Positions 17,966-33,104 of a stretch of 64,000 nucleotides of DNA are shown in pieces. How positions within the stretch are numbered: the first letter of the stretch is position 1; every line of letters starts with the position of its first letter. The DNA comes from an uncultured Gammaproteobacteria bacterium. GTDB lineage: Bacteria > Patescibacteriota > Microgenomatia > Woykebacterales > RBG-16-39-9b. Under the pieces are notes generated by a model. That model was not told the origin of the DNA, searched no databases, and worked only from the letters and a program-made list of their open reading frames with translations. Location of the stretch: contig CAYHXX010000001.1 in NCBI GenBank assembly GCA_964360785.1, positions 346,907-410,906 of the forward strand, in the 5' to 3' direction. A program made the translations under genes and the position numbers.

Positions 17966-18808
17966 TTATTCCTCCAATTTTTCGACTGGGACTCCAGCCC
18001 ACTTTGCTAAATCCGGAAGTTTTTGAACACCTTCAATCTTCTTTATTACTTCACCATCCTTTTCGATCAAAAAAGTTGGTGTGTGTTCAATCCCACGGTC
18101 CAGACACAACTGTGGATTGCCGTTTGGACCTTTAGGGTGGCATTCCACACTATTGAGTTTTTTGTACGCTGGACCAATCATTTGCTCTTGCTTCTTGCAG
18201 TTACTACAAGTGTAGGACTTGTAATAAACTAGTCCTTTTTCGTTGAGTGCTTCTACAAAGGGTGTGTAGTCTTTCTTGGCTACAATACTAGTCTGAGCAA
18301 AGTAAGTCACTCCAGCAACCACTACCCCAGCGATGATAACAGGCATGGCCATCCGGAAAACAACAGTGAACTTCTCCTTCATCGCAAAAAACGAAGTCAC
18401 AGCAATAAGAATCATCAAGATCTTGCTAGTCTCACACAGGATACAGAAAGCTTTGATAACAAAAGCTTCAAGAGCCGTAAAATAATACGATGGGATCAAA
18501 ACAAAGACAGTCAGATAAAAGATCGTCTGATAAAAAGCTTTGGTTCTTTGGAAAATAGCTAGCAAGAAAGTTAAACCAAAATACCCCAAACCCATTATCG
18601 ATATTGGAATTCCGAAAATTTCAGAATATATGCTAGTAGTGACTGCATCGCAGGAAAGTTTTTCGTTGATGTCACACACTGAAGATGCTTCGGCGAAATG
18701 GATATATGTGAGATACACCATTATCCCAAAACCAACCAGAGAAAGTATTGAAATTAGAAGTCTTGGAAATTTTGTGAGAGATTCTTTTTTTGTCTCGTCC
18801 GAACTCAT
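17966..18808 (-). CDS. Vitamin K epoxide reductase (VKOR) fused to thioredoxin-like domain
   Basis: VKOR TM core with CDINEKLSCD and CILCE Cys pairs. C-terminal Trx-like CSNC motif. Confidence 0.7.
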   Translation of the reverse strand: MSSDETKKESLTKFPRLLISILSLVGFGIMVYLTYIHFAEASSVCDINEKLSCDAVTTSIYSEIFGIPISIMGLGYFGLTFLLAIFQRTKAFYQTIFYLTVFVLIPSYYFTALEAFVIKAFCILCETSKILMILIAVTSFFAMKEKFTVVFRMAMPVIIAGVVVAGVTYFAQTSIVAKKDYTPFVEALNEKGLVYYKSYTCSNCKKQEQMIGPAYKKLNSVECHPKGPNGNPQLCLDRGIEHTPTFLIEKDGEVIKKIEGVQKLPDLAKWAGVPVEKLEE

Positions 18809-18913
18809 TTTGGCAAGGTGATTTGATAATTTACTCTAGTTTAATTATAGGTTTCCAATAAACTTTCTGTCAACTGTTCTTTAGTCGAAACCCTTGTAGG
18901 AGCCTACTAACAT

Positions 18914-20068
18914 TTGGTATTGTTTACCAGATTATTGAAGTTTATGAAAATACTTTCCTCAAAATTTGAAATATCTGTTATCGCTTTTTTGTTCTTTCTT
19001 TTTCTTGTCCCTACCGTAATTGCAGCTCAAGAAAATCAACAAACTCCCCCAAAGGAGGAGAGACTTGAAGCAGTTGTTACAAAAATACAAGAAGAGAAAG
19101 AAGTTGAAGCAGAAGGCACTGACAAGAAAACCCTTTATCAGAAGCTAGAAGTGCTAGTAGTAAGTGAGGAACGAAAAGGGGAAACCCTTGTGATCGAAAA
19201 CAATATGCCAGTTGTAAATGCTCAAAGGTATAAGGTTGGTGATAAAGTAGTCATCGCTGCCAACCAAACTGTGGATGGGAAAGAGTTGTTGTATATAAAT
19301 GATTATGTTAGAAGAACACCACTCTACTTTCTGTTTGCAATCTTCGCTGGGCTAACAGTTTTGATTGGTAGAAAAAGAGGACTTGCTTCGCTGATTGGAA
19401 TGGGACTGTCTTTCTTTGTCATTTTTACCTTTGTTCTCCCGCAAATTCTCTCTGGAAAAGACCCGATTTTTATCGCCATAGTTGCCTCTTTATTTATCAT
19501 TCCAACCAATTTTTACCTTGCTCACGGAGCAAATAGAAAAACAACCGCGGCAGTTATTGGAACGATAATAGCGCTGGTAATTACCGGAATACTAGCCAAT
19601 GTATTTGTTGACGCCGCCAGACTTACCGGTTTTGCTTCTGAAGAGGCGGCATTTCTTCAACAAGCCAAGCCTGATCTGATCAATATACGAGGACTTCTCC
19701 TCGCGGGTATTATCATTGGCGTTCTCGGAATCCTTGATGATATTACGATTTCTCAAGCTGCAATAGTCGCTCAGCTTAAGAAAGCTTCACCTAAAATTCC
19801 TTTTTGGGAACTGTTTAATCGCTCGATGGATATCGGCCGAGACCACATTGCTTCAATGGTAAATACGCTTATCCTTGTCTATACTGGAGCAGCGATGCCA
19901 CTGCTTCTGCTATTTTCCAACAACCCTCACCCTTTTTCTGAACTGATTAACTATGAGATCGTCGCCGAGGAGTTTGTCAGAACTTTAGTTGCAAGTATTG
20001 GTCTGATACTAGCAGTACCAATCACAACTTTTATCACAACAGTTTTGTTTGATAAAAAGGCAGGCTGA
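18914..20068 (+). CDS. YibE/F-family membrane protein
   Basis: N-terminal signal/TM, soluble segment, then about 7 TM helices with YibE/F-like organisation. Confidence 0.5.
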   Translation: MVLFTRLLKFMKILSSKFEISVIAFLFFLFLVPTVIAAQENQQTPPKEERLEAVVTKIQEEKEVEAEGTDKKTLYQKLEVLVVSEERKGETLVIENNMPVVNAQRYKVGDKVVIAANQTVDGKELLYINDYVRRTPLYFLFAIFAGLTVLIGRKRGLASLIGMGLSFFVIFTFVLPQILSGKDPIFIAIVASLFIIPTNFYLAHGANRKTTAAVIGTIIALVITGILANVFVDAARLTGFASEEAAFLQQAKPDLINIRGLLLAGIIIGVLGILDDITISQAAIVAQLKKASPKIPFWELFNRSMDIGRDHIASMVNTLILVYTGAAMPLLLLFSNNPHPFSELINYEIVAEEFVRTLVASIGLILAVPITTFITTVLFDKKAG

Positions 20069-25707: not shown

Positions 25708-26241
25708 ATGCCTGAAGAAAATATTCAACAACCGATTCCCCAACAAATACCTCAACCAATAATGCAACCCCAACCAGTCGCCACTTCACACTCTAAAGTC
25801 GGTTATATTTTTGGTGGTTTGTCTTTCATACCGCTTTTTGGAGTTTTATTCGGAATAATCGCAATTATTATTGGTATATTCACAAAATCAAAACTCTCCA
25901 TTTTCTTGGGAGTAGGAGGCATATTATTTTCAGTAATTCTATATGGAAGCCTTTTCTATTTTGGCTTTGTGGCAAAATCTGGCCCTTTTGCTGATATTAA
26001 AGTACAACTAACACAACAAATCATTAATCAGGATAAAGCGCAAATACTTGCCTATAAAACTAATAACGGAAAGTTGCCAGATAGCTTAAGTAATTTACCA
26101 AGAGAATATATGATTAATCCAAGCGATGCTTGGTTAAAACCAATTAATTACAAAGTTAATGGGGATGGAACTTTTGAATTGAGAAGTGATGGACCAGATG
26201 GAATACCAAATAATAGTGACGATATTCTTCCTAATAACTAG
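25708..26241 (+). CDS. Membrane protein with C-terminal type II secretion GspG/pseudopilin-like domain
   Basis: Gln/Pro-rich N-terminus, two TM helices, then ILAYKTNNGKLPDSLSNL...YKVNGDGTFELRSDGPDGIPNNSDDI resembling the T2SS_G domain. No prepilin leader. Confidence 0.4.
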   Translation: MPEENIQQPIPQQIPQPIMQPQPVATSHSKVGYIFGGLSFIPLFGVLFGIIAIIIGIFTKSKLSIFLGVGGILFSVILYGSLFYFGFVAKSGPFADIKVQLTQQIINQDKAQILAYKTNNGKLPDSLSNLPREYMINPSDAWLKPINYKVNGDGTFELRSDGPDGIPNNSDDILPNN

Positions 26242-26384
26242 ATAATATTTCCTGTTACAACAACCTAATATAGGAACTGGTGACCCCGGCGGGAGACAGT
26301 CCGATCCGATCGGACTAATCATTAAGAAATGAGCGAACCCAAGTGGGTTCAAACCAATGGCCAGAGATCATAAAAACAAAAAGA

Positions 26385-26414
26385 CAGGCAAAGATTGCCT
26401 GCTTTCTGTTTTGG
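26385..26414. terminator. Bidirectional intrinsic terminator
   Basis: Stem CAGGCAA/TTGCCTG with loop AGA, flanked by an A-run upstream and CTTTCTGTTTT downstream. Downstream of the XRE gene on the minus strand. Confidence 0.5.
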
Positions 26415-26499
26415 TGACCCGAACAGTACACAGTTCGAACCGGTCGTGGCTTTCTGGGACAGGATTATACAGTCTTACTGTGAAACTTCAGATCAGGAA

Positions 26500-26727
26500 C
26501 TATAAAAGTTTTGTCTTTAACACCTCTGCAATTTTGCGCAGTTTATCGTACGATGTATTTATTTCCCCACGCTCAATTCTGGCATAGTATGTGACATCCA
26601 TTCCGGATTTTTCGGCTACCTCCGCCTGAGTTAAACCAGACTTTTCTCTGGCGTCTTTTAGTTTATTGCTTAAATCTTTAGTTATTTTGTCGTTTTGATC
26701 GCTATTCATATGTGTATAGTATAACAC
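26500..26727 (-). CDS. XRE-family helix-turn-helix transcriptional regulator
   Basis: GLTQAEVAEKSGMDVTYYARIERGE is a canonical HTH_XRE. 75 aa. Confidence 0.75.
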   Translation of the reverse strand: MLYYTHMNSDQNDKITKDLSNKLKDAREKSGLTQAEVAEKSGMDVTYYARIERGEINTSYDKLRKIAEVLKTKLL

Positions 26728-26812
26728 TTAAGGAAAAAAGTGACTTATTCTTATTTTTATTTTTATAACTCATTTCACTAAAATTCGTAAACCGTTTTGA
26801 ATTAAATAGCCC

Positions 26813-26842
26813 TTGACTTTTGACTATAGGTTTATGTATACT
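26813..26842 (+). promoter_or_regulatory. Promoter TTGACT-18-TATACT with tandem TTGAC motif upstream of the 230-aa cargo gene
   Basis: TTGACT 26813-26818 and TATACT 26837-26842. RBS AAGGAG 26874-26879. Divergent from the XRE gene. Confidence 0.45.
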
Positions 26843-26884
26843 TTGCCTCAATAAATACTGACCCATCAAGCCAAAGGAGCTGCC

Positions 26885-27577
26885 ATGCAAAGGATTCGCT
26901 TGTACTGCGAAGGTATCAAGCCCGTAATGTTCGACCCAGCGTCTGAAGCATTCTTGGACAAACTGGGTACTCGTGTTCGACAACAACCAAGAACTGATAT
27001 CAATGTCGAAGAAGAGGCCAGAAGCAGAGTTCTCGTTACTGAAAGAGATTACCTGTATTTCCCGCTGGGCTACCTCTTCTCGTGCTTGGTTGAAGCGGGA
27101 AGGTTCGTCAAATACGAAGGGAAGATGAGCCTGTCAACTGCCGATTCTACTCGTCTCACCATGATCCTCACTCTCGAAGGCGAACAGGTAATTCTGGGGT
27201 TACGGGATGGTAATGGCACTTTCCAGCCACTATCCCCCGATGAATGGACCGTGGATAAGCGACGTGGGGTGAACAAAGTCACCAAAGCCCCTGTTCGTAT
27301 CATTCGTCCCAAGATTGCTCGTTGGGGTTTCGAGGTGGAAGCGGTTTTCGATAACGATCGATTCGCTCTCAGTAAACTGATCGAGCTCTTTCGGGTGGCA
27401 GGTTTGGGGATTGGAATCGGAAGCTTCCGGGCAGAAAATAAAGGCGAGTTCGGAATGTTCGAACTCAAGGAAGTAAAGATCCTCGAGGAATGGAAGCCAG
27501 AGGAGACGGTGAAGGTCGTCAGCTTGGTCGAGACCAAACCGACTACGAAACGATCAAGGTCAAAGGCTAAGCAATGA
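26885..27577 (+). CDS. Hypothetical 230-aa protein with C-terminal glycine-rich loop (RAMP-like?), GC-rich cargo gene
   Basis: Strong RBS and promoter. GC-rich with coherent codon usage. GLGIGIGSFRAENKGEFG glycine-rich loop. No catalytic motif recognised. Confidence 0.5.
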   Translation: MQRIRLYCEGIKPVMFDPASEAFLDKLGTRVRQQPRTDINVEEEARSRVLVTERDYLYFPLGYLFSCLVEAGRFVKYEGKMSLSTADSTRLTMILTLEGEQVILGLRDGNGTFQPLSPDEWTVDKRRGVNKVTKAPVRIIRPKIARWGFEVEAVFDNDRFALSKLIELFRVAGLGIGIGSFRAENKGEFGMFELKEVKILEEWKPEETVKVVSLVETKPTTKRSRSKAKQ

Positions 27578-27707
27578 CGACAACATGAGCAAGGATGCTC
27601 ATACTGAAGGCAGACCCAGATTGGGAGCTGTGACTCTGCACTGCACTCCTGTGCTTTGCTTTGTTCTCTCTAGCTATCCATTCTGTTGCAGTCTGTAGCA
27701 CAGGGCT

Positions 27708-27760
27708 GGGGGTTCTTCGACTTCGGTTGTCGAACCCCTGCCATCTTTTTTATACTTTTT
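27708..27760 (+). terminator. Intrinsic terminator after the 230-aa gene
   Basis: GGGGGTTCTTCGAC / GTCGAACCCC stem with loop TTCGGTT, then TGCCATCTTTTTT. Confidence 0.4.
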
Positions 27761-27819
27761 CCTACTGTTCAATTTTGTAATCAGCACTTTTCAGCTGAAA
27801 TAGTTCAAGGAGAAGGATC

Positions 27820-29628
27820 GTGAACCAAGGGGAACATCTTGGACCGCTCACCTTCGAGGAGCTGTCCTCTGCCTTTCCAAGGCAGTATCGGCAAATGCAC
27901 CCCAACCAGAGGGAGGCATTCAGACGAATTGCCCAAGCAAGGGGTTCGGTTACCATTGAAGCCCCAACCGGGAGTGGCAAAACCGCAATTGGCTACACTG
28001 TTCTGCGGGCGCTTGCCGCCAGAGGTGAAGGGCCTCTGTTCTATGTCGTGCCCAATAGGGCATTGGTCGGGCAGGTGCACACTTTGCACCGCGACCTCGT
28101 TGAGGTGTACGGACGGCACGAGTATGAGTGTCTCTACTTCCCGGAGCAAAATTACCGGGCGGATGAGATACCGTGCTCTCTGCTAACCGACTGTGCTCAC
28201 CGGGTTGACCAGGAAACTGGGCAAACCTTTGGACGGGGTCGACGCTGCCCGTATTACTGGGCAAAGTATCAGGCGAAGCAGAGTCAGATCGTTGTCTGCA
28301 CCATGGCTTTTTACCTCTTTACCCAACTGTTCAGTCGGGAATGGGGGGAACCTGCTGGCCTGGTGATCGATGAGACCCACCAAATTGCCAAGGTGTTCCG
28401 CAATGCCCTGAGTTTCGAGATCTCGGACTACCACCTTGAAAGTGCGATTCGGCTTCTCGAGCCGTTTGCCCCAGAAGGTGCGGCTGGTCTCGAGGTGTTT
28501 CTTGAGACGATGAACCGGATCGTGAGAATCAAACGGTCCAACACGCCAAGTTTGCTTGAAGACACCGAGATTGAAGAACTGCTGATGACGCTGATGCTTA
28601 TCGACCACAACAGGTTGCGGCAAGGGTTGTCAACGGCAGTTACGTCGGGTTCCATTGATGTCAGTCAGCACGTGGAGGTGCTCACCCGAGTCGACCGGAT
28701 CGTGCGAGATCTTGTACGTTACCTGCGTGCGTTTGAGTTCTCGCTACCGACTGAAGATCGTCACCCTCTTAACTACACCTTCGCCTATTACGACAGGGAG
28801 CAGGTAGTGGGTAGGCGAGTCAACAACCGGCTTGTGGTCAAAGCCTATCACGTTGCTCCGCTGGTAAGGAGCCTGTTGTCTTCGAGGATGACACTTGCCT
28901 ACTCGGCGACAATTGGGGATGAGAACATCTTTGCACTCGAGACAGGAATTCGTCAGCCGACCTACCACTTTGGCTCGGACTTCCCCAACGAGAATACCCG
29001 GGTGTTCATGCCAACCAATACACCGAACCTGGCAATGCAGGCTCGAGGTCGGAGGGATCTGGCTAACACCATCCGAAGGATAGCTCGGGCTTGCCGACGT
29101 TTCAATGACGCTGGGCATCGTTGCCTGGTCGTGGTGGTTTCTGATGCGGAGAGACAGAGGTTCCTGCGAATGGCGGCCGAAGAAGGTGTTGACGTCGTTT
29201 CTTATGGCGACGGTGTTAGCGCACGTGCTGCTGCTGAAAGGTTCCGTGATCGTGGCGAGGGTGGTGTGTTGTGTGGGACAGTGGCCAACTACGGGGAAGG
29301 GATTGACCTACCCGATGGTAAGGCCCCGGTGATTTTCTTCCTCCGCCCGGCGTACCCCTCTCCGAATGATCCGGCAACTCAGTTCGAGGAGCGCCGTTTT
29401 GGAAGCAGGCGCTGGTCGGTTTGGAACTGGCGTGTGATGATGGAGGCTCTCCAGGTCCGTGGTCGCAACGTGAGAAGCACAACGGATTTGGGTGTGACCT
29501 TCTTCATGTCGCAGCAGTTCCGCAGATTCCTCTACGGATCCCTGCCAAACTGGCTGCAGCCTGCCTATAGGGGAGATCTCACCTTTGACGAAGGAGTTGA
29601 GGAGGCGTTGGAGGTGTTGGAAAGATAG
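27820..29628 (+). CDS. XPD/DinG/Rad3-family Fe-S ATP-dependent DNA helicase (GC-rich cargo gene)
   Basis: Walker A EAPTGSGKT. Four Cys between motifs I and II (ECLYF, PCSLL, TDCAH, RRCPYY with the CPY signature). DExH box VIDETHQ. C-terminal helicase_C_2-like VANYGEGIDLPDG. GTG start with AAGGAG RBS. Confidence 0.7.
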   Translation: MNQGEHLGPLTFEELSSAFPRQYRQMHPNQREAFRRIAQARGSVTIEAPTGSGKTAIGYTVLRALAARGEGPLFYVVPNRALVGQVHTLHRDLVEVYGRHEYECLYFPEQNYRADEIPCSLLTDCAHRVDQETGQTFGRGRRCPYYWAKYQAKQSQIVVCTMAFYLFTQLFSREWGEPAGLVIDETHQIAKVFRNALSFEISDYHLESAIRLLEPFAPEGAAGLEVFLETMNRIVRIKRSNTPSLLEDTEIEELLMTLMLIDHNRLRQGLSTAVTSGSIDVSQHVEVLTRVDRIVRDLVRYLRAFEFSLPTEDRHPLNYTFAYYDREQVVGRRVNNRLVVKAYHVAPLVRSLLSSRMTLAYSATIGDENIFALETGIRQPTYHFGSDFPNENTRVFMPTNTPNLAMQARGRRDLANTIRRIARACRRFNDAGHRCLVVVVSDAERQRFLRMAAEEGVDVVSYGDGVSARAAAERFRDRGEGGVLCGTVANYGEGIDLPDGKAPVIFFLRPAYPSPNDPATQFEERRFGSRRWSVWNWRVMMEALQVRGRNVRSTTDLGVTFFMSQQFRRFLYGSLPNWLQPAYRGDLTFDEGVEEALEVLER

Positions 29629-29757
29629 GGCGATCGTGAACCCAGGGTTATAGCTACTCTCTTGAGTACGCCGTAACGACCCTGGGTTTTTCATTTCTAG
29701 ATTTACCAGCTGAAAGGCTGGTTTTTTGTTGATTAAATCCTAAAGCGCAGGGTAATA

Positions 29758-30639
29758 TTACTCTTTTCTGACTATTGTCCAGATATTATCACTACCCAAC
29801 CCTTCTTCGGTTGCTTGCTTTAAAGTTGTTAGTAAAAACGTTATTTCTTCGAGGTCGTAAGAACTGTCAAGTTGTTTTTTAATGTATTTGCCAATCTGGT
29901 TTAATTTTTGTTGGTTGGGAAAAATTAGCAGAAGAATAGGGAATTTTCTGTCCAAGCCGCTAAATCTATGTTTCCCCCCTTCACTTTGATTAAATTTAAT
30001 ATATTGGTCTACTTTATACCTGAGAGCATATCTTGGAACACCTGGGTCAAAGAGTTGCAGAAAGTAAGTTTGAGAGCTATTGTCTTCTTGATCAGGATTA
30101 ATTAATTTTTCAAAGTAAATATCTGGAATAATTTCCTTGATCTTTTCAAAATCGTCTTCTTTGTATAAATCCATCTTTTCAGTTATCCAAAGTTCTGTTT
30201 TTGTAGCGAACTGATACTCTATGTTAGTACTTTTCTTTTGTTTTTCCTTGAGCTGGATATAGAAGTCAAAGAGGCTGATGCAGTGATCAATAAAAGTTTG
30301 GGAGGCGTGTTTATCCTCATAGAACTTTTTAATAAGCTTAAAGTCCAGTTTTTCATTATCTGCCTGGTAAGCTTCACCCTTTTCAAAACGTGCCCATAAG
30401 ATGCCGTTATTCGCCAGGTAATAGATGGCAGGTTTGGTATTTTCGAGTAGCTTGTGGGAATATATCCTGCCTAAATAACCTTTTTCCACTAAATCTTTAA
30501 GCCAGACGTTAATTCTTTTTGGATCCTTGTGGTCAAGAATCCTTTGTATTTGTTTCCGGTTAATAAACCGAAACCTGTAAACAAGATCAACTATCTCTTT
30601 TTGTTTTTCAGTTATCTCGGGACGTTCTTTGTAGTTCAT
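29758..30639 (-). CDS. Replication-relaxation family protein (winged-helix N-domain)
   Basis: N-terminus ITEKQKEIVDLVYRFRFINRKQIQRIL matches the replication-relaxation (PF13814-like) pattern. Sits beside the palindromic ori-like site. Confidence 0.45.
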   Translation of the reverse strand: MNYKERPEITEKQKEIVDLVYRFRFINRKQIQRILDHKDPKRINVWLKDLVEKGYLGRIYSHKLLENTKPAIYYLANNGILWARFEKGEAYQADNEKLDFKLIKKFYEDKHASQTFIDHCISLFDFYIQLKEKQKKSTNIEYQFATKTELWITEKMDLYKEDDFEKIKEIIPDIYFEKLINPDQEDNSSQTYFLQLFDPGVPRYALRYKVDQYIKFNQSEGGKHRFSGLDRKFPILLLIFPNQQKLNQIGKYIKKQLDSSYDLEEITFLLTTLKQATEEGLGSDNIWTIVRKE

Positions 30640-30849
30640 AAGATCATTCCAGTTTATTAATAGTTATTTAATTGGCAGATTTCTAGATTTAGGACAGGAG
30701 GTTTATTAGTTGGGCAGGGAAACTTAAAGGAGCAGAGGTTTAGGGGATTATACACATTTACTCAGCAACATTACTACTTCTCTTCCTTTTACCTTGTAAA
30801 AGGGTAAAGACCGGAAATTAAAATTCCTTTAATAAACCTAATATAAGCT

Positions 30850-30904
30850 CGTACGTAGCCACGACCCGTGTCCTAGACAGTTAGGACACAGCCCATGCGT
30901 ACGT
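30850..30904. promoter_or_regulatory. 55-bp imperfect palindrome; putative recombination/oriT/operator site
   Basis: CGTACGT-(11)-GTGTCCTA-(6)-TAGGACAC-(8)-CGTACGT. Followed by AT-rich iterons, with ATATGTATAT at 30938 and 30961. Confidence 0.45.
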
Positions 30905-30986
30905 GCGAACTATTTTTACTAATTGACAACTATACACATATGTATATATAATATATACAGATATGTATATGTAACTTGCCTAACTC

Positions 30987-31316
30987 TTGGATATGAAAGT
31001 ACTAGATTCGGAACAATTGGAAATTAGACCTAAACAACGAGAATTTAAACTCCTAGAACAACAAGATGTCTACGAAAACCTCAATCAACATCTTTCCGAA
31101 CAAGAAAAGGAACAAAGAATCATTCTCGAAGCTCGAGATATCTTAGGAGAAGCTGCGGAAAACCTAACTGATGAGCAAATTTGCAATTTAGTAAGTGAGA
31201 TTCAATATCTGGTTGATACTTGGTTAGAGGAATTTGAAACAAAGGTTTATGGGGGTAAGACCTTAAGTGAGTTACTACACCTAAATTATCATGAACACAC
31301 CGTTTCCAGCAAATAA
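30987..31316 (+). CDS. Hypothetical acidic protein upstream of and overlapping the recombinase (possible directionality/accessory factor)
   Basis: TTG start. Overlaps the recombinase start by 26 nt. No motif recognised. Confidence 0.35.
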   Translation: MDMKVLDSEQLEIRPKQREFKLLEQQDVYENLNQHLSEQEKEQRIILEARDILGEAAENLTDEQICNLVSEIQYLVDTWLEEFETKVYGGKTLSELLHLNYHEHTVSSK

Positions 31317-32838
31317 TATTTCAGAACCAAGAAAAGCTGTTATCTATATCCGAGTTTCTTCTGAGGAACAAGTAGAAAACTTTTCTTTGGGAACACAGGA
31401 GGAAATATGCCGCAGAGATGCGAAATATAAAGGTTATGAAATAGCGGAAGTATTTAAGGAAGAGGGTCGCTCAGCAAAAACTATTATTGGAAGGCCAGTG
31501 CTACTTGAAATGCTCGACTTTTGCAGAAAAAACAAGAAAGATCTTCAAGCGGTTTATGTTTACCGACTTGATAGATTATCCAGGCAAACTTCCGATTACC
31601 TAGCAATAAGAAAAAGGCTTGCCGACTATAATATCGCTATTCTTTCCGCAACTGAACCAACAGGAAATTCACCAACAGAAAAATTACTTGAAACTGTTCT
31701 GGCAAGTTTTGCTCAACACGATAATGACGTGCGAAGTGAAAGAACGAAAAACGGTATGCGAGCAAGGTTTTTATCAGGCCTGATTACAAACAAGTTAACC
31801 GCTGGGTATGTTAATCAAGGTGGCTATGCTATTAAAGATTCGGAAAAGTTTGAAACTATTAAAAAAGCTTGGGACTTAATGGCAACGGGAACAAAGAGTT
31901 TAAGAGAAATAAGAACTATTTTAAGTTGCTGGGGAGTTGAGATAAAACCGCACGCGATTCACGCAATGTTCCACAATAAGTTCTACATGGGCATATTAAG
32001 CTCTCCAAAATACCCAGAGGAGGTTCGTGGTCAGCACTCTCCTATGGTTACTGAAGAGCAGTTCTATAAAGTACAAGCAATTTTGGACGGTCGCGATACA
32101 AACAGGTTGGTTATGCCACGGAAAAGCAGAGATAACAAAGACTTTCCTCTGAGAAGGATCGTTAGATGCGGTAGATGTGGCACTCCGTTTACTGGAGCCA
32201 AAACCAAAGGGAGAAGTGAATACTATTCATATTATTTTTGTCGAAAAAGATGTGTTAATACTTCGGTGCCAGTTGAAACTTTAGACAAGTCATTAGGAAA
32301 CCTGCTCCAAATTCTTAACCCTACTGAAAACGGAATAAAACTTTACTGCAACGCCCTTATCAAAACCTACAACAAGAAAATGTTTCGACTTGAGAAAACT
32401 AAGAATGGAGCTGACGAGGAGATCAAGAAGCTTTTTGGACTCCGACAGACTTTAGTTGAAAAAAACCTAGCTGGAACTTTTTCAGATGAGATCTTTAAAG
32501 AACAGAACGCCGTTATTGAAGAAAAACTAATAGCTGCTCAAGCCTCAAAAAATGACGCTCTCATTGATAAGTACGATATCGCCGCAATTGTAGCCTTTAT
32601 CGAAACTAAACTAGCCGATATTGCCCAAACCTATTTTAGCTCGACTCTTAGCCAAGCTCGCTGCCTTCTCGGTTCGATATTTCTCTCGGGATTGAGTTGG
32701 GACTATCCTGGTTGTTCGAACCGCGGTATTAGCCCGATATATCAAGGTATTATTGATGTTGAAAGTAAGGGTGTTCCCTTTGGTGACCCCGGCGGGATTC
32801 GAACCCGCGATCTCTTGGATGAAAACCAAGTATCCTAA
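31291..32838 (+). CDS. Large serine recombinase (integrase)
   Basis: Resolvase catalytic domain AVIYIRVSSEEQ, recombinase domain and zinc ribbon CGRCGTPF...CRKRC. The ORF reads through into the tRNA-Glu gene, so the last about 19 aa are tRNA-encoded. Confidence 0.8.
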   Translation: MNTPFPANNISEPRKAVIYIRVSSEEQVENFSLGTQEEICRRDAKYKGYEIAEVFKEEGRSAKTIIGRPVLLEMLDFCRKNKKDLQAVYVYRLDRLSRQTSDYLAIRKRLADYNIAILSATEPTGNSPTEKLLETVLASFAQHDNDVRSERTKNGMRARFLSGLITNKLTAGYVNQGGYAIKDSEKFETIKKAWDLMATGTKSLREIRTILSCWGVEIKPHAIHAMFHNKFYMGILSSPKYPEEVRGQHSPMVTEEQFYKVQAILDGRDTNRLVMPRKSRDNKDFPLRRIVRCGRCGTPFTGAKTKGRSEYYSYYFCRKRCVNTSVPVETLDKSLGNLLQILNPTENGIKLYCNALIKTYNKKMFRLEKTKNGADEEIKKLFGLRQTLVEKNLAGTFSDEIFKEQNAVIEEKLIAAQASKNDALIDKYDIAAIVAFIETKLADIAQTYFSSTLSQARCLLGSIFLSGLSWDYPGCSNRGISPIYQGIIDVESKGVPFGDPGGIRTRDLLDENQVS

Positions 32839-32856
32839 CCACTAGACGACGGGGCC
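32781..32856 (-). tRNA. tRNA-Glu (anticodon UUC), CCA encoded
   Basis: Folds as a cloverleaf: acceptor GGCCCCG/CGGGGTC, anticodon stem CTTGG/CCAAG, loop TTTTCAT giving anticodon TTC, T-loop TTCGAAT. Similar to E. coli tRNA-Glu. Confidence 0.85.
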
Positions 32857-32884
32857 ACAAGTTATTTTATTTTTAAACCGGCGG

Positions 32885-32925
32885 ACCGGACCCGGGATCT
32901 CTTGGATGAAAACCAAGTATCCAGT
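32885..32925 (-). pseudogene. tRNA-Glu fragment (D-arm to anticodon arm copy), remnant
   Basis: GATCTCTTGGATGAAAACCAAGTATCC is identical to the internal part of the adjacent tRNA-Glu. It lacks a proper T-arm and acceptor stem. Confidence 0.4.
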
Positions 32926-33104
32926 CCTTCTTCAGGAATGAATGCGAAGCATTTGCCTCACTAGCCAACGGGTCCAAGAACCAAGAGATTATACACAAAA
33001 ACTGAACCTAATTCAAACCCAAGAAATTCTTGACAATACTTGACAGACTGGTGTAATCTTTCTCTAAGGAGTGCTGCTCAAAATTTGCAGTTCAAAAATC
33101 TTAA

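Follow-up and report, generated by a model that had tools for sequence, protein, structure and literature searches.

A putative origin of transfer and a recombinase promoter with operator-like repeats in a candidate integrative mobilizable element of Patescibacteria

The 64,000-nt stretch analysed here (contig CAYHXX010000001.1 of assembly GCA_964360785.1; hereafter the window) is Patescibacteria chromosome with housekeeping genes as flanking genes. It contains a segment, 30850-30974, for which an initial annotation had proposed an origin of transfer (oriT), a replication origin with iterons, a recombinase operator or an attachment (att) core. We read this segment, with a probability of about 0.5, as a transfer-origin core next to a repressible recombinase promoter in an integrative mobilizable element. 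The chances are similarly balanced that it forms the cis-acting hub of a 6.5-kb element of this type, which spans approximately 26278-32797 and is inserted in a tRNA-Glu gene, and that the hub is composed of two independent devices: a palindrome that belongs to the relaxase module, and the promoter of the recombinase operon with its operators. Here we describe both devices and their counterparts in related elements, and weigh the alternative explanations.

The core palindrome, GTGTCCTA-gacagt-TAGGACAC, occupies 30868-30889, its arms at 30868-30875 and 30882-30889 being separated by 6 nt (GACAGT), and includes at 30869-30888 the window copy of a family consensus, TGTCCYA-N6-TRGGACA. Outer CGTACG(T) boxes at 30850-30856 and 30898-30904 surround this core and complete a nested palindrome of 55 bp (30850-30904). 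A repeat search returned an inverted repeat with 37-nt arms, 70% complementarity and a 6-nt gap. All strings and coordinates given in the initial annotation, comprising the CGTACGT boxes, the palindrome arms and a pair of repeats spaced 23 bp, were recovered exactly. The large imperfect palindrome it described is present and exceeds chance, but the outer arms are weaker than the inner ones, since the CGTACGT pair consists of direct copies of the self-complementary hexamer CGTACG at unequal distances, 11 and 8 nt, from the core. TGTCCTA-N6-TAGGACA, allowing two mismatches, occurs once in the 64 kb against 0.16 expected occurrences. A 76-nt stretch folds as single-stranded DNA at -12.3 kcal/mol (z = -3.2), and 2 of 200 shuffled sequences folded as well. 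At 230 bp upstream of the relaxase gene, the palindrome is situated between two diverging predicted promoters and outside both predicted transcripts; since no transcription is expected there it would act as DNA rather than as RNA.

Relatives of the recombinase were collected at 39 loci (designated by L numbers), all in metagenome-assembled genomes whose informative labels are Daviesbacteria, Levybacteria, Microgenomates and similar. The small gene that precedes the recombinase is found in 33 of them and the relaxase gene in 24, counts that are to be read with many of the loci being cut off by contig ends. Most loci encode in addition a TrwB/TraG-like coupling protein of 860-960 aa. Centre alignment of the palindromes from 22-23 elements yielded the above consensus. 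In the alignment 89.6% of the cells pair, a figure that is inflated as the palindromes were hand-picked; all seven pairs vary on both sides, as in GTACCTA/TAGGTAC, GCCCTC/GAGGGC and GTAACAGC/GCTGTTAC, and none of 500 shuffles matched the result. A pattern scan, which is free of this bias, of 600 kb of related loci with at most two mismatches identified 18 matches, 14 of which are located 110-290 bp upstream of a relaxase start; shuffled sequence gave 2-9 matches anywhere. This comparative scan is the decisive evidence that the palindrome exceeds chance. The initial annotation had made its proposal depend on conservation in related elements, and the core is indeed conserved.

The constant neighbour of the palindrome is the relaxase gene, across four gene contexts. 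The palindrome directly follows the stop codon of the coupling-protein gene in nine loci, faces an open reading frame (ORF) of 172 aa in L029, and faces cargo ORFs in L007, with 1.6 kb separating it from the recombinase promoter. The fourth context, in which that promoter is what it faces, is confined to copies that lack the coupling protein and was seen in the window, L041, L014, L015, L038 and L037. The type of palindrome tracks the relaxase: L007 and L037 have the closest relaxases and share a GTCCTA core. It does not track the recombinase, as L001 and L005, whose recombinases are closest (67-73% identical), have different palindromes. The close relative L041 keeps the GTCCTAG..CTAGGAC core, the outer boxes, the nested structure and the promoter, as well as the elements of the relaxase leader described below. 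Between L041 and the window, identity is about 94% from the palindrome to the start codon, versus about 65% for the relaxase leader outside its boxes. A mere CGTAC remnant of the outer CGTACG boxes is left in L007 and L037.

Nearly every locus displays the same series of elements in the direction of the relaxase gene: the G+C-rich palindrome, an A+T-rich second inverted repeat (IR2), a -10-like element, one to six CTGYY boxes and the start codon. In the window, IR2 (CCTTTTAC-ctt-GTAAAAGG, 30785-30803, minus strand) is found 84 nt from the core palindrome and is preceded by a CTTTACC box. An equivalent of IR2 occurs 65-84 nt from the palindrome in 11 loci and a CTTTAC/CCTTTAT box in 18 of 23. 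The -10-like element, TATAAT at 30747-30752 (minus strand), was read from the sequence and a good -35 element is absent; other loci have TGnTAcAAT at this position. IR2 is probably the operator of the relaxase promoter. The leader that follows has four CTGYY boxes (CTGCC/CTGCT/CTGTC; 30674-30735, minus strand) spaced 18-20 nt, which appear on the given strand as GGCAG (30674-30678), GACAG (30693-30697), GGCAG (30713-30717) and AGCAG (30731-30735). There are four boxes in L005 as well, five in L037 and six in L007. Over all loci 42 boxes were observed versus 14.8 expected, with almost none on the other strand, and L041 retains IR2 and the boxes while the spacers have diverged. We consider the boxes candidate binding repeats of the relaxase. 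The leader of the coupling-protein gene (approximately 145 bp between the coupling-protein and small genes in L005, L016, L022, L024, L025, L031, L039 and L040) contains one or two CCTGCC(C) boxes downstream of a -10-like TATAC, in many cases enclosed in a small CCC...GGG dyad; this is the same box as that of the relaxase leaders.

The relaxase gene (29758-30639, minus strand) encodes a Replic_Relax (PF13814) protein of the MOBC type, identified by Pfam with 33.6 bits, above the cutoff of 25.3. PMC5357655 equates PF13814 with the MOBC relaxases, and these are described as PD-(D/E)xK-type proteins with an N-terminal winged helix in PMC3424549, PMC5357655 and PMC12857230. The MobC of S. suis 89K (PMC3132442) is an accessory protein rather than a relaxase of this class and was left aside. 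Near-invariant residues of the family are concentrated at positions 10-75, the N-terminal winged-helix DNA-binding region, which fits a conserved DNA target. Most members have the PD motif and an (F/I)D downstream of it, and no acidic residue is invariant at the 85% level. A tblastn search of PLSDB plasmids with the relaxase protein identified no detectable similarity.

The closest known counterpart is the pAD1-type oriT. In pAD1, the MOBC relaxase TraX binds five direct repeats 70-120 bp from nic (PMC12857230), and pTEF1 (NC_004669) has a 142-bp nested inverted repeat (L043, 19498-19639) and five 12-bp direct repeats between the genes for coupling protein and relaxase. The resemblance comprises a relaxase of the same Pfam and MOB family, a nested inverted repeat with a series of short direct repeats, here candidate ones, and, when compared with the fuller Patescibacteria copies, a coupling-protein gene that precedes the relaxase gene on the same strand, the cis site being between them. 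The outer arms of the pTEF1 repeat begin GTCCTC...GAGGAC, a hexamer shared with the L011 variant TGTCCTC...GAGGACA, which we treat as a lead only. The inverted repeat of pTEF1 is, in contrast, 142 bp long versus 20-55 bp here, and its 12-bp direct repeats adjoin it on the side of the coupling-protein gene, whereas the 5-nt CTGYY boxes, with 18-20-nt spacing, lie on the relaxase side and 130-210 bp away. Unlike the pAD1-type plasmids, the present element is integrated by means of a serine recombinase.

The second device is the promoter of the operon of the small gene and the recombinase, TTGACA (30923-30928) and TATAAT (30947-30952) with an 18-nt spacer on the plus strand, which matches the consensus at 12 of 12 positions. 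Perfect TTGACA-N18-TATAAT occurs at two sites in the 64 kb, where 0.04 are expected, and nearly all related loci retain the cTTGACAAC...TATAyT frame. The other perfect site, 18844-18873 on the minus strand, is situated between the diverging ORFs 17966-18808 (minus) and 18914-20068 (plus). Two operator-like repeats occupy 30929-30974 (plus strand): O1 (approximately 30929-30948) in the spacer and O2 (approximately 30952-30971) from the -10 element across the expected start site. ATATGTATAT is found at 30938-30947 and again at 30961-30970, a spacing of 23 bp; the repeat search extended it to a 21-nt direct repeat (30931-30951 and 30954-30974, 90% identity, spacing 23). O1 and O2 together can also be read as 19-nt arms with 89% complementarity, and the 17-mer repeat unit has six overlapping matches against 0.02 expected.

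Nearly all loci have a palindrome of 18-20 bp that starts in or just after the -10 element, often with a second copy in the spacer, and the equivalent inverted repeat is significant relative to dinucleotide shuffles in 24 of 29 loci. Its sequence varies by subgroup: ACTGTAAATATATTTACAGT; ACTATCCGTATA...TATACGGATAGT; ACTGTCTATATATAGACAGT; TATACAnATATGTATA; GTAAACATATTTGTTTAC. A palindrome that overlaps the promoter at a position conserved among homologues is what a promoter-embedded operator looks like, and by sequence and placement the A+T-rich repeats bear the signature of operators, not of iterons. The recombinase operator of the initial annotation is thereby supported for these repeats, which are inside the consensus promoter of the recombinase operon, and not for the palindrome. 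A third operator copy, ACTATACACATATGAATA (26703-26720, minus strand), is identical to O1 at 17 of 18 positions and overlaps a TATACT -10-like hexamer and the ATG of a gene for an XRE-family HTH_3 protein of 69 aa (26500-26709, minus strand; Pfam HTH_3, E = 4e-17). This suggests one repressor for the XRE gene and the recombinase operon, and makes the XRE protein the best local repressor candidate.

The arrangement resembles the Cro/CI-type, XRE-bound operators of promoters in phages and ICEs (integrative and conjugative elements): palindromes of 18-20 bp cover the -10 element and start site, a second one is located in the spacer about two turns away, and the element has an XRE-family gene with a further operator copy at its own start. 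It differs from them in that no divergent repressor/antirepressor switch is evident and in that XRE homologues occur in only 5 related loci, an operator copy at the XRE gene not being found in four other XRE-bearing loci. A general repressor role of XRE was rejected on these grounds and the protein was retained as a candidate specific to the window. The small protein (107 aa, acidic, pI 4.6; 30993-31316, plus strand), product of the first gene of the operon, was considered as operator binder and rejected as unlikely: it is acidic, its predicted structure is a hairpin of two long helices (pLDDT 75), and neither a Pfam family nor a PDB fold match was found. It is more likely a partner of the recombinase than a DNA binder. 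Its gene overlaps the recombinase start by 26 nt.

A number of observations weigh against the transfer-origin reading and the repression proposed with it. No secretion system was found within the 64-kb window, and the coupling-protein gene is absent from the window's element in a profile search, so a helper would be required for transfer. At least 10 related loci have the palindrome between the genes for coupling protein and relaxase; the window does not. The palindrome is short, 20-22 bp (55 bp with the outer boxes), next to the repeat of pTEF1, and several loci have one CTGYY box or none, with the boxes at the distance given above. The window relaxase has a Q in place of the acidic residue of the second PD-(D/E)xK-like motif, a motif that is variable across the family, and this copy may be catalytically impaired; together with the lack of a coupling protein this means that the element copy itself may be decaying. 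The position of the palindrome abutting the coupling-protein stop codon in nine loci would also suit a terminator or mRNA-end hairpin. The scarcity of XRE homologues and of operator copies beside them counts likewise against the repressor. We know of no nic consensus for MOBC relaxases that could be matched. Nick motifs beside the palindrome were searched for. Some loci have a GAGGCTAA-like motif, T-rich and loose, 15-18 nt downstream; neither it nor the CTTTACC box could be assigned.

In favour of a transfer origin, an oriT is required in a mobilizable element and is usually located next to the relaxase gene, and the palindrome is conserved and travels with a MOBC-type relaxase gene in all four contexts. 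An oriT, as the initial annotation had suggested, is the best reading of the palindrome, a judgement from sequence comparison that we hold at roughly even odds. The same balance applies to the fuller assignment in which the palindrome would be the oriT core, the CTGYY boxes candidate relaxase binding repeats and IR2 the operator of the relaxase promoter. That TGTCCYA-N6-TRGGACA is the functional oriT of widespread tRNA-integrating elements with MOBC relaxase and serine recombinase in Patescibacteria is proposed more tentatively, and we consider it slightly less likely to hold than to fail.

The main rival to an oriT is a purely regulatory protein-binding site, which we regard as unlikely. The palindrome would in that case be a transcriptional operator bound by a dimeric regulator, the winged helix of the relaxase or another protein, and control the relaxase promoter and, in the window, the diverging recombinase promoter too. 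Dimer sites are typically dyads of fixed length in which the outer bases are conserved and the centre is free, as is the case here with 20 bp and a 6-bp centre, and the palindrome is always upstream of the relaxase promoter. Its distance from the relaxase start (110-290 bp) argues otherwise, as does its location 65-84 nt upstream of IR2, an inverted repeat right at the -10 region that would make the more natural operator; moreover the centres of the half-sites are 13 bp apart, off one helical turn. Relaxases and accessory proteins often autoregulate at or near oriT, so this explanation is compatible with the palindrome being an oriT.

It is improbable that the palindrome is an intrinsic terminator or RNA-end hairpin of the coupling-protein gene, left in the window as a relic after loss of that gene. 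Such a role would account for a hairpin that ends 0-3 nt past the coupling-protein stop codon in the nine loci mentioned, and for the T-run that follows some copies (L014, L015, L040). Most copies are, however, followed on the transcribed strand by an A-run and not a T-run, and the stem sequence is conserved among elements whose relaxases are 30-40% identical, which is unusual for terminators. The palindrome is also kept in at least seven loci that have no upstream gene on that strand and in L029 despite an intervening plus-strand ORF, and the window copy is outside both predicted transcripts.

The third explanation, a site of the large serine recombinase, either the att core or an accessory or pseudo-att site, is to be set against the probable ends of the element. 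The left junction (attL side) is a displaced 3' end of tRNA-Glu, TGGTGACCCCGGCGGGA at 26278-26294 (plus strand), an exact 17-nt repeat of 32781-32797, which is the right junction (attR side) within tRNA-Glu(UUC) at 32781-32856 (minus strand). Identity between the two copies stops within the T-loop of the tRNA. This repeat pair probably represents the ends of the element, the boundary assignment being based on a single repeat. Neither the predicted attB (TATAGGAACTGGTGACCCCGGCGGGATTCGAA) nor the attP junction of an excised circle (TTTGGTGACCCCGGCGGGAGACAGTCCGATC) had a match in an exact search of metagenome contigs. Left junctions of the other loci, defined as a tRNA 3'-end repeat of at least 10 nt, or 18 nt with at most three mismatches, were not found within 8 kb.

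The palindrome does share with attP and attB sites of large serine recombinases an imperfect dyad near the recombinase gene, with a 2-nt centre in many copies, and its TGTC...GACA ends recall resolvase half-sites, a lead only. Its left flank and loop (ACGACCCGTGTCCTAGACAGT, 30859-30881) and the reconstructed attP (GTGACCCCGGCGGGAGACAGT, 32784-32797 joined to 26295-26301) have GACCC-N7-AGACAGT in common; the match is lost in the close relative L041, which has a different loop (GACGTC), and is therefore probably due to chance. An att core cannot stay intact in an integrated element, so the palindrome, which is internal, intact and 2-4.6 kb from either copy of the sole junction repeat found, is not the att core that the initial annotation considered. 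With 20 bp it is too short for a large serine recombinase site, for which a dyad of about 40-50 bp is expected, it tracks the relaxase module and not the recombinase module, and several copies have a palindromic CG centre dinucleotide that would abolish polarity. A recombinase site is accordingly very improbable.

Least probable of all is an iteron-type replication origin, on whose A+T-rich repeats the 'replication-relaxation' protein would act and to which the palindrome would belong as a neighbouring element. In its favour, the repeats are A+T-rich, direct and spaced by about two helical turns, replication figures in the family name, and excised elements of other families can replicate from oriT. 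Against it, there are two copies only, where at least three phased repeats separate from a promoter would be expected, each unit is itself palindromic and present as a single copy in some relatives, and the repeats coincide exactly with the spacer and start site of the 12/12 promoter, follow the recombinase module rather than the relaxase in sequence type and are 1.6-3 kb from relaxase gene and palindrome in most relatives.

Turning to the element as a whole, an integrase, a relaxase and junction repeats at a specific target in the absence of mating-pore genes are the features by which integrative mobilizable elements are recognized, and the present element shows them all, with no secretion system in the 64 kb. 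The large serine recombinase (31291-32838, plus strand; Resolvase, Recombinase and Zn_ribbon_recom domains by Pfam) has the last ~58 nt of its ORF overlapping tRNA-Glu on the opposite strand. An overlap of this kind, between the recombinase 3' end and a tRNA gene for Glu, Gln, Lys, His or Tyr, recurs in about 30 of the 39 related loci, which indicates that tRNA targeting is a family trait. As a result of the overlap integration changes the C-terminal codons of the recombinase, namely the last ~14-20, and it is the antisense of the T-arm that encodes the conserved C-terminal ...GIRT... peptide. An Rfam search over 26200-33100 identified the tRNA alone, matches on the repeats being at chance level, and the 6.4-kb region had no match in a plasmid collection searched in distant DNA mode. 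Just upstream of the intact tRNA, at 32878-32975, is a degenerate second tRNA-Glu-like sequence with an identical anticodon-arm segment, linked to the intact gene by a 27-nt exact repeat (32809-32835 and 32896-32922); it may be what is left of a tandem gene or of a previous integration. A perfect hairpin, GTCCGATC-C-GATCGGAC (26299-26315), lies immediately inside the left junction and is followed by two terminator-like hairpins (26334-26351 and 26384-26402). The first of these three hairpins could be part of a P' arm of the recombinase.

The remaining genes of the element are an ORF of 230 aa with no known family (26885-27577, plus strand), upstream of a helicase gene, and that cargo DEAD_2/Helicase_C_2 helicase itself (27820-29628, plus strand; Pfam). 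The helicase gene has a G+C content of 52.5%, compared with about 42% in the window and 36% in the element genes beside it, which points to a separate origin of the cargo. In a fuller relative (L040, 1-4109) the cargo comprises a type I restriction-modification system (HsdR, HsdM/S) and an ATPase (AAA_15/AAA_21), and elements of this family may ferry defence genes.

Binding, nicking and repression in this region, and the identity of the proteins involved, are what we infer from the features described. After excision, the MOBC-type (Replic_Relax) relaxase would assemble on the palindrome region, its winged-helix domain binding the CTGYY boxes, the palindrome or both, and would nick near or within the palindrome. 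The nicked strand would be passed to a coupling protein and from there to a type IV secretion system, both supplied by a helper. At the second device a dimeric repressor, for which the element's own XRE protein is the best candidate here, would sit on the operator copies of 18-20 bp and block RNA polymerase, so that neither the small protein nor the large serine recombinase would be made before induction.

Integrative mobilizable elements that combine a MOBC relaxase with a serine integrase are a known class. Coluzzi et al. 2017 (PMC5357655) describe streptococcal IME_Class_8, with a VirD4 coupling protein, a PF13814/MobC relaxase and a serine integrase; compared with that description, the family has the same three signature families in a compact module with no secretion system of its own. 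By contrast, the host here is a member of Patescibacteria rather than Bacillota, the recombinase operon diverges from the genes for relaxase and coupling protein, the target is a tRNA gene into which the recombinase ORF reads, and the coupling protein is missing from the window copy. The tycheposon preprint mentions tRNA-linked elements with serine recombinases. What is new is a defined cis architecture with a consensus in a lineage of Patescibacteria, and a tRNA target with the recombinase ORF reading into it. The architecture obeys the known rules of integrative mobilizable elements, and its value is that of a new example, not of a new principle.

A survey of type IV secretion systems in Patescibacteria, which had already counted MOBC relaxases near coupling-protein genes, found few relaxases, among which 58 belonged to class MOBC, and reached the conclusion that other functions predominate in these systems (PMC12102498). 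If the palindrome is an oriT, it would be the first defined cis-acting conjugation site in the candidate phyla radiation and, in contrast to that conclusion, some type IV secretion systems of Patescibacteria, or those of their hosts, would still move DNA. The 20-bp consensus 110-290 bp upstream of PF13814 genes could serve to locate more elements, or orphan origins, in metagenomes. Little is known of gene exchange in bacteria of the candidate phyla radiation, and the region would provide a concrete handle on it: a compact element with candidate ends in a tRNA gene, a candidate oriT with a clear consensus, and a strong, apparently repressible recombinase promoter.

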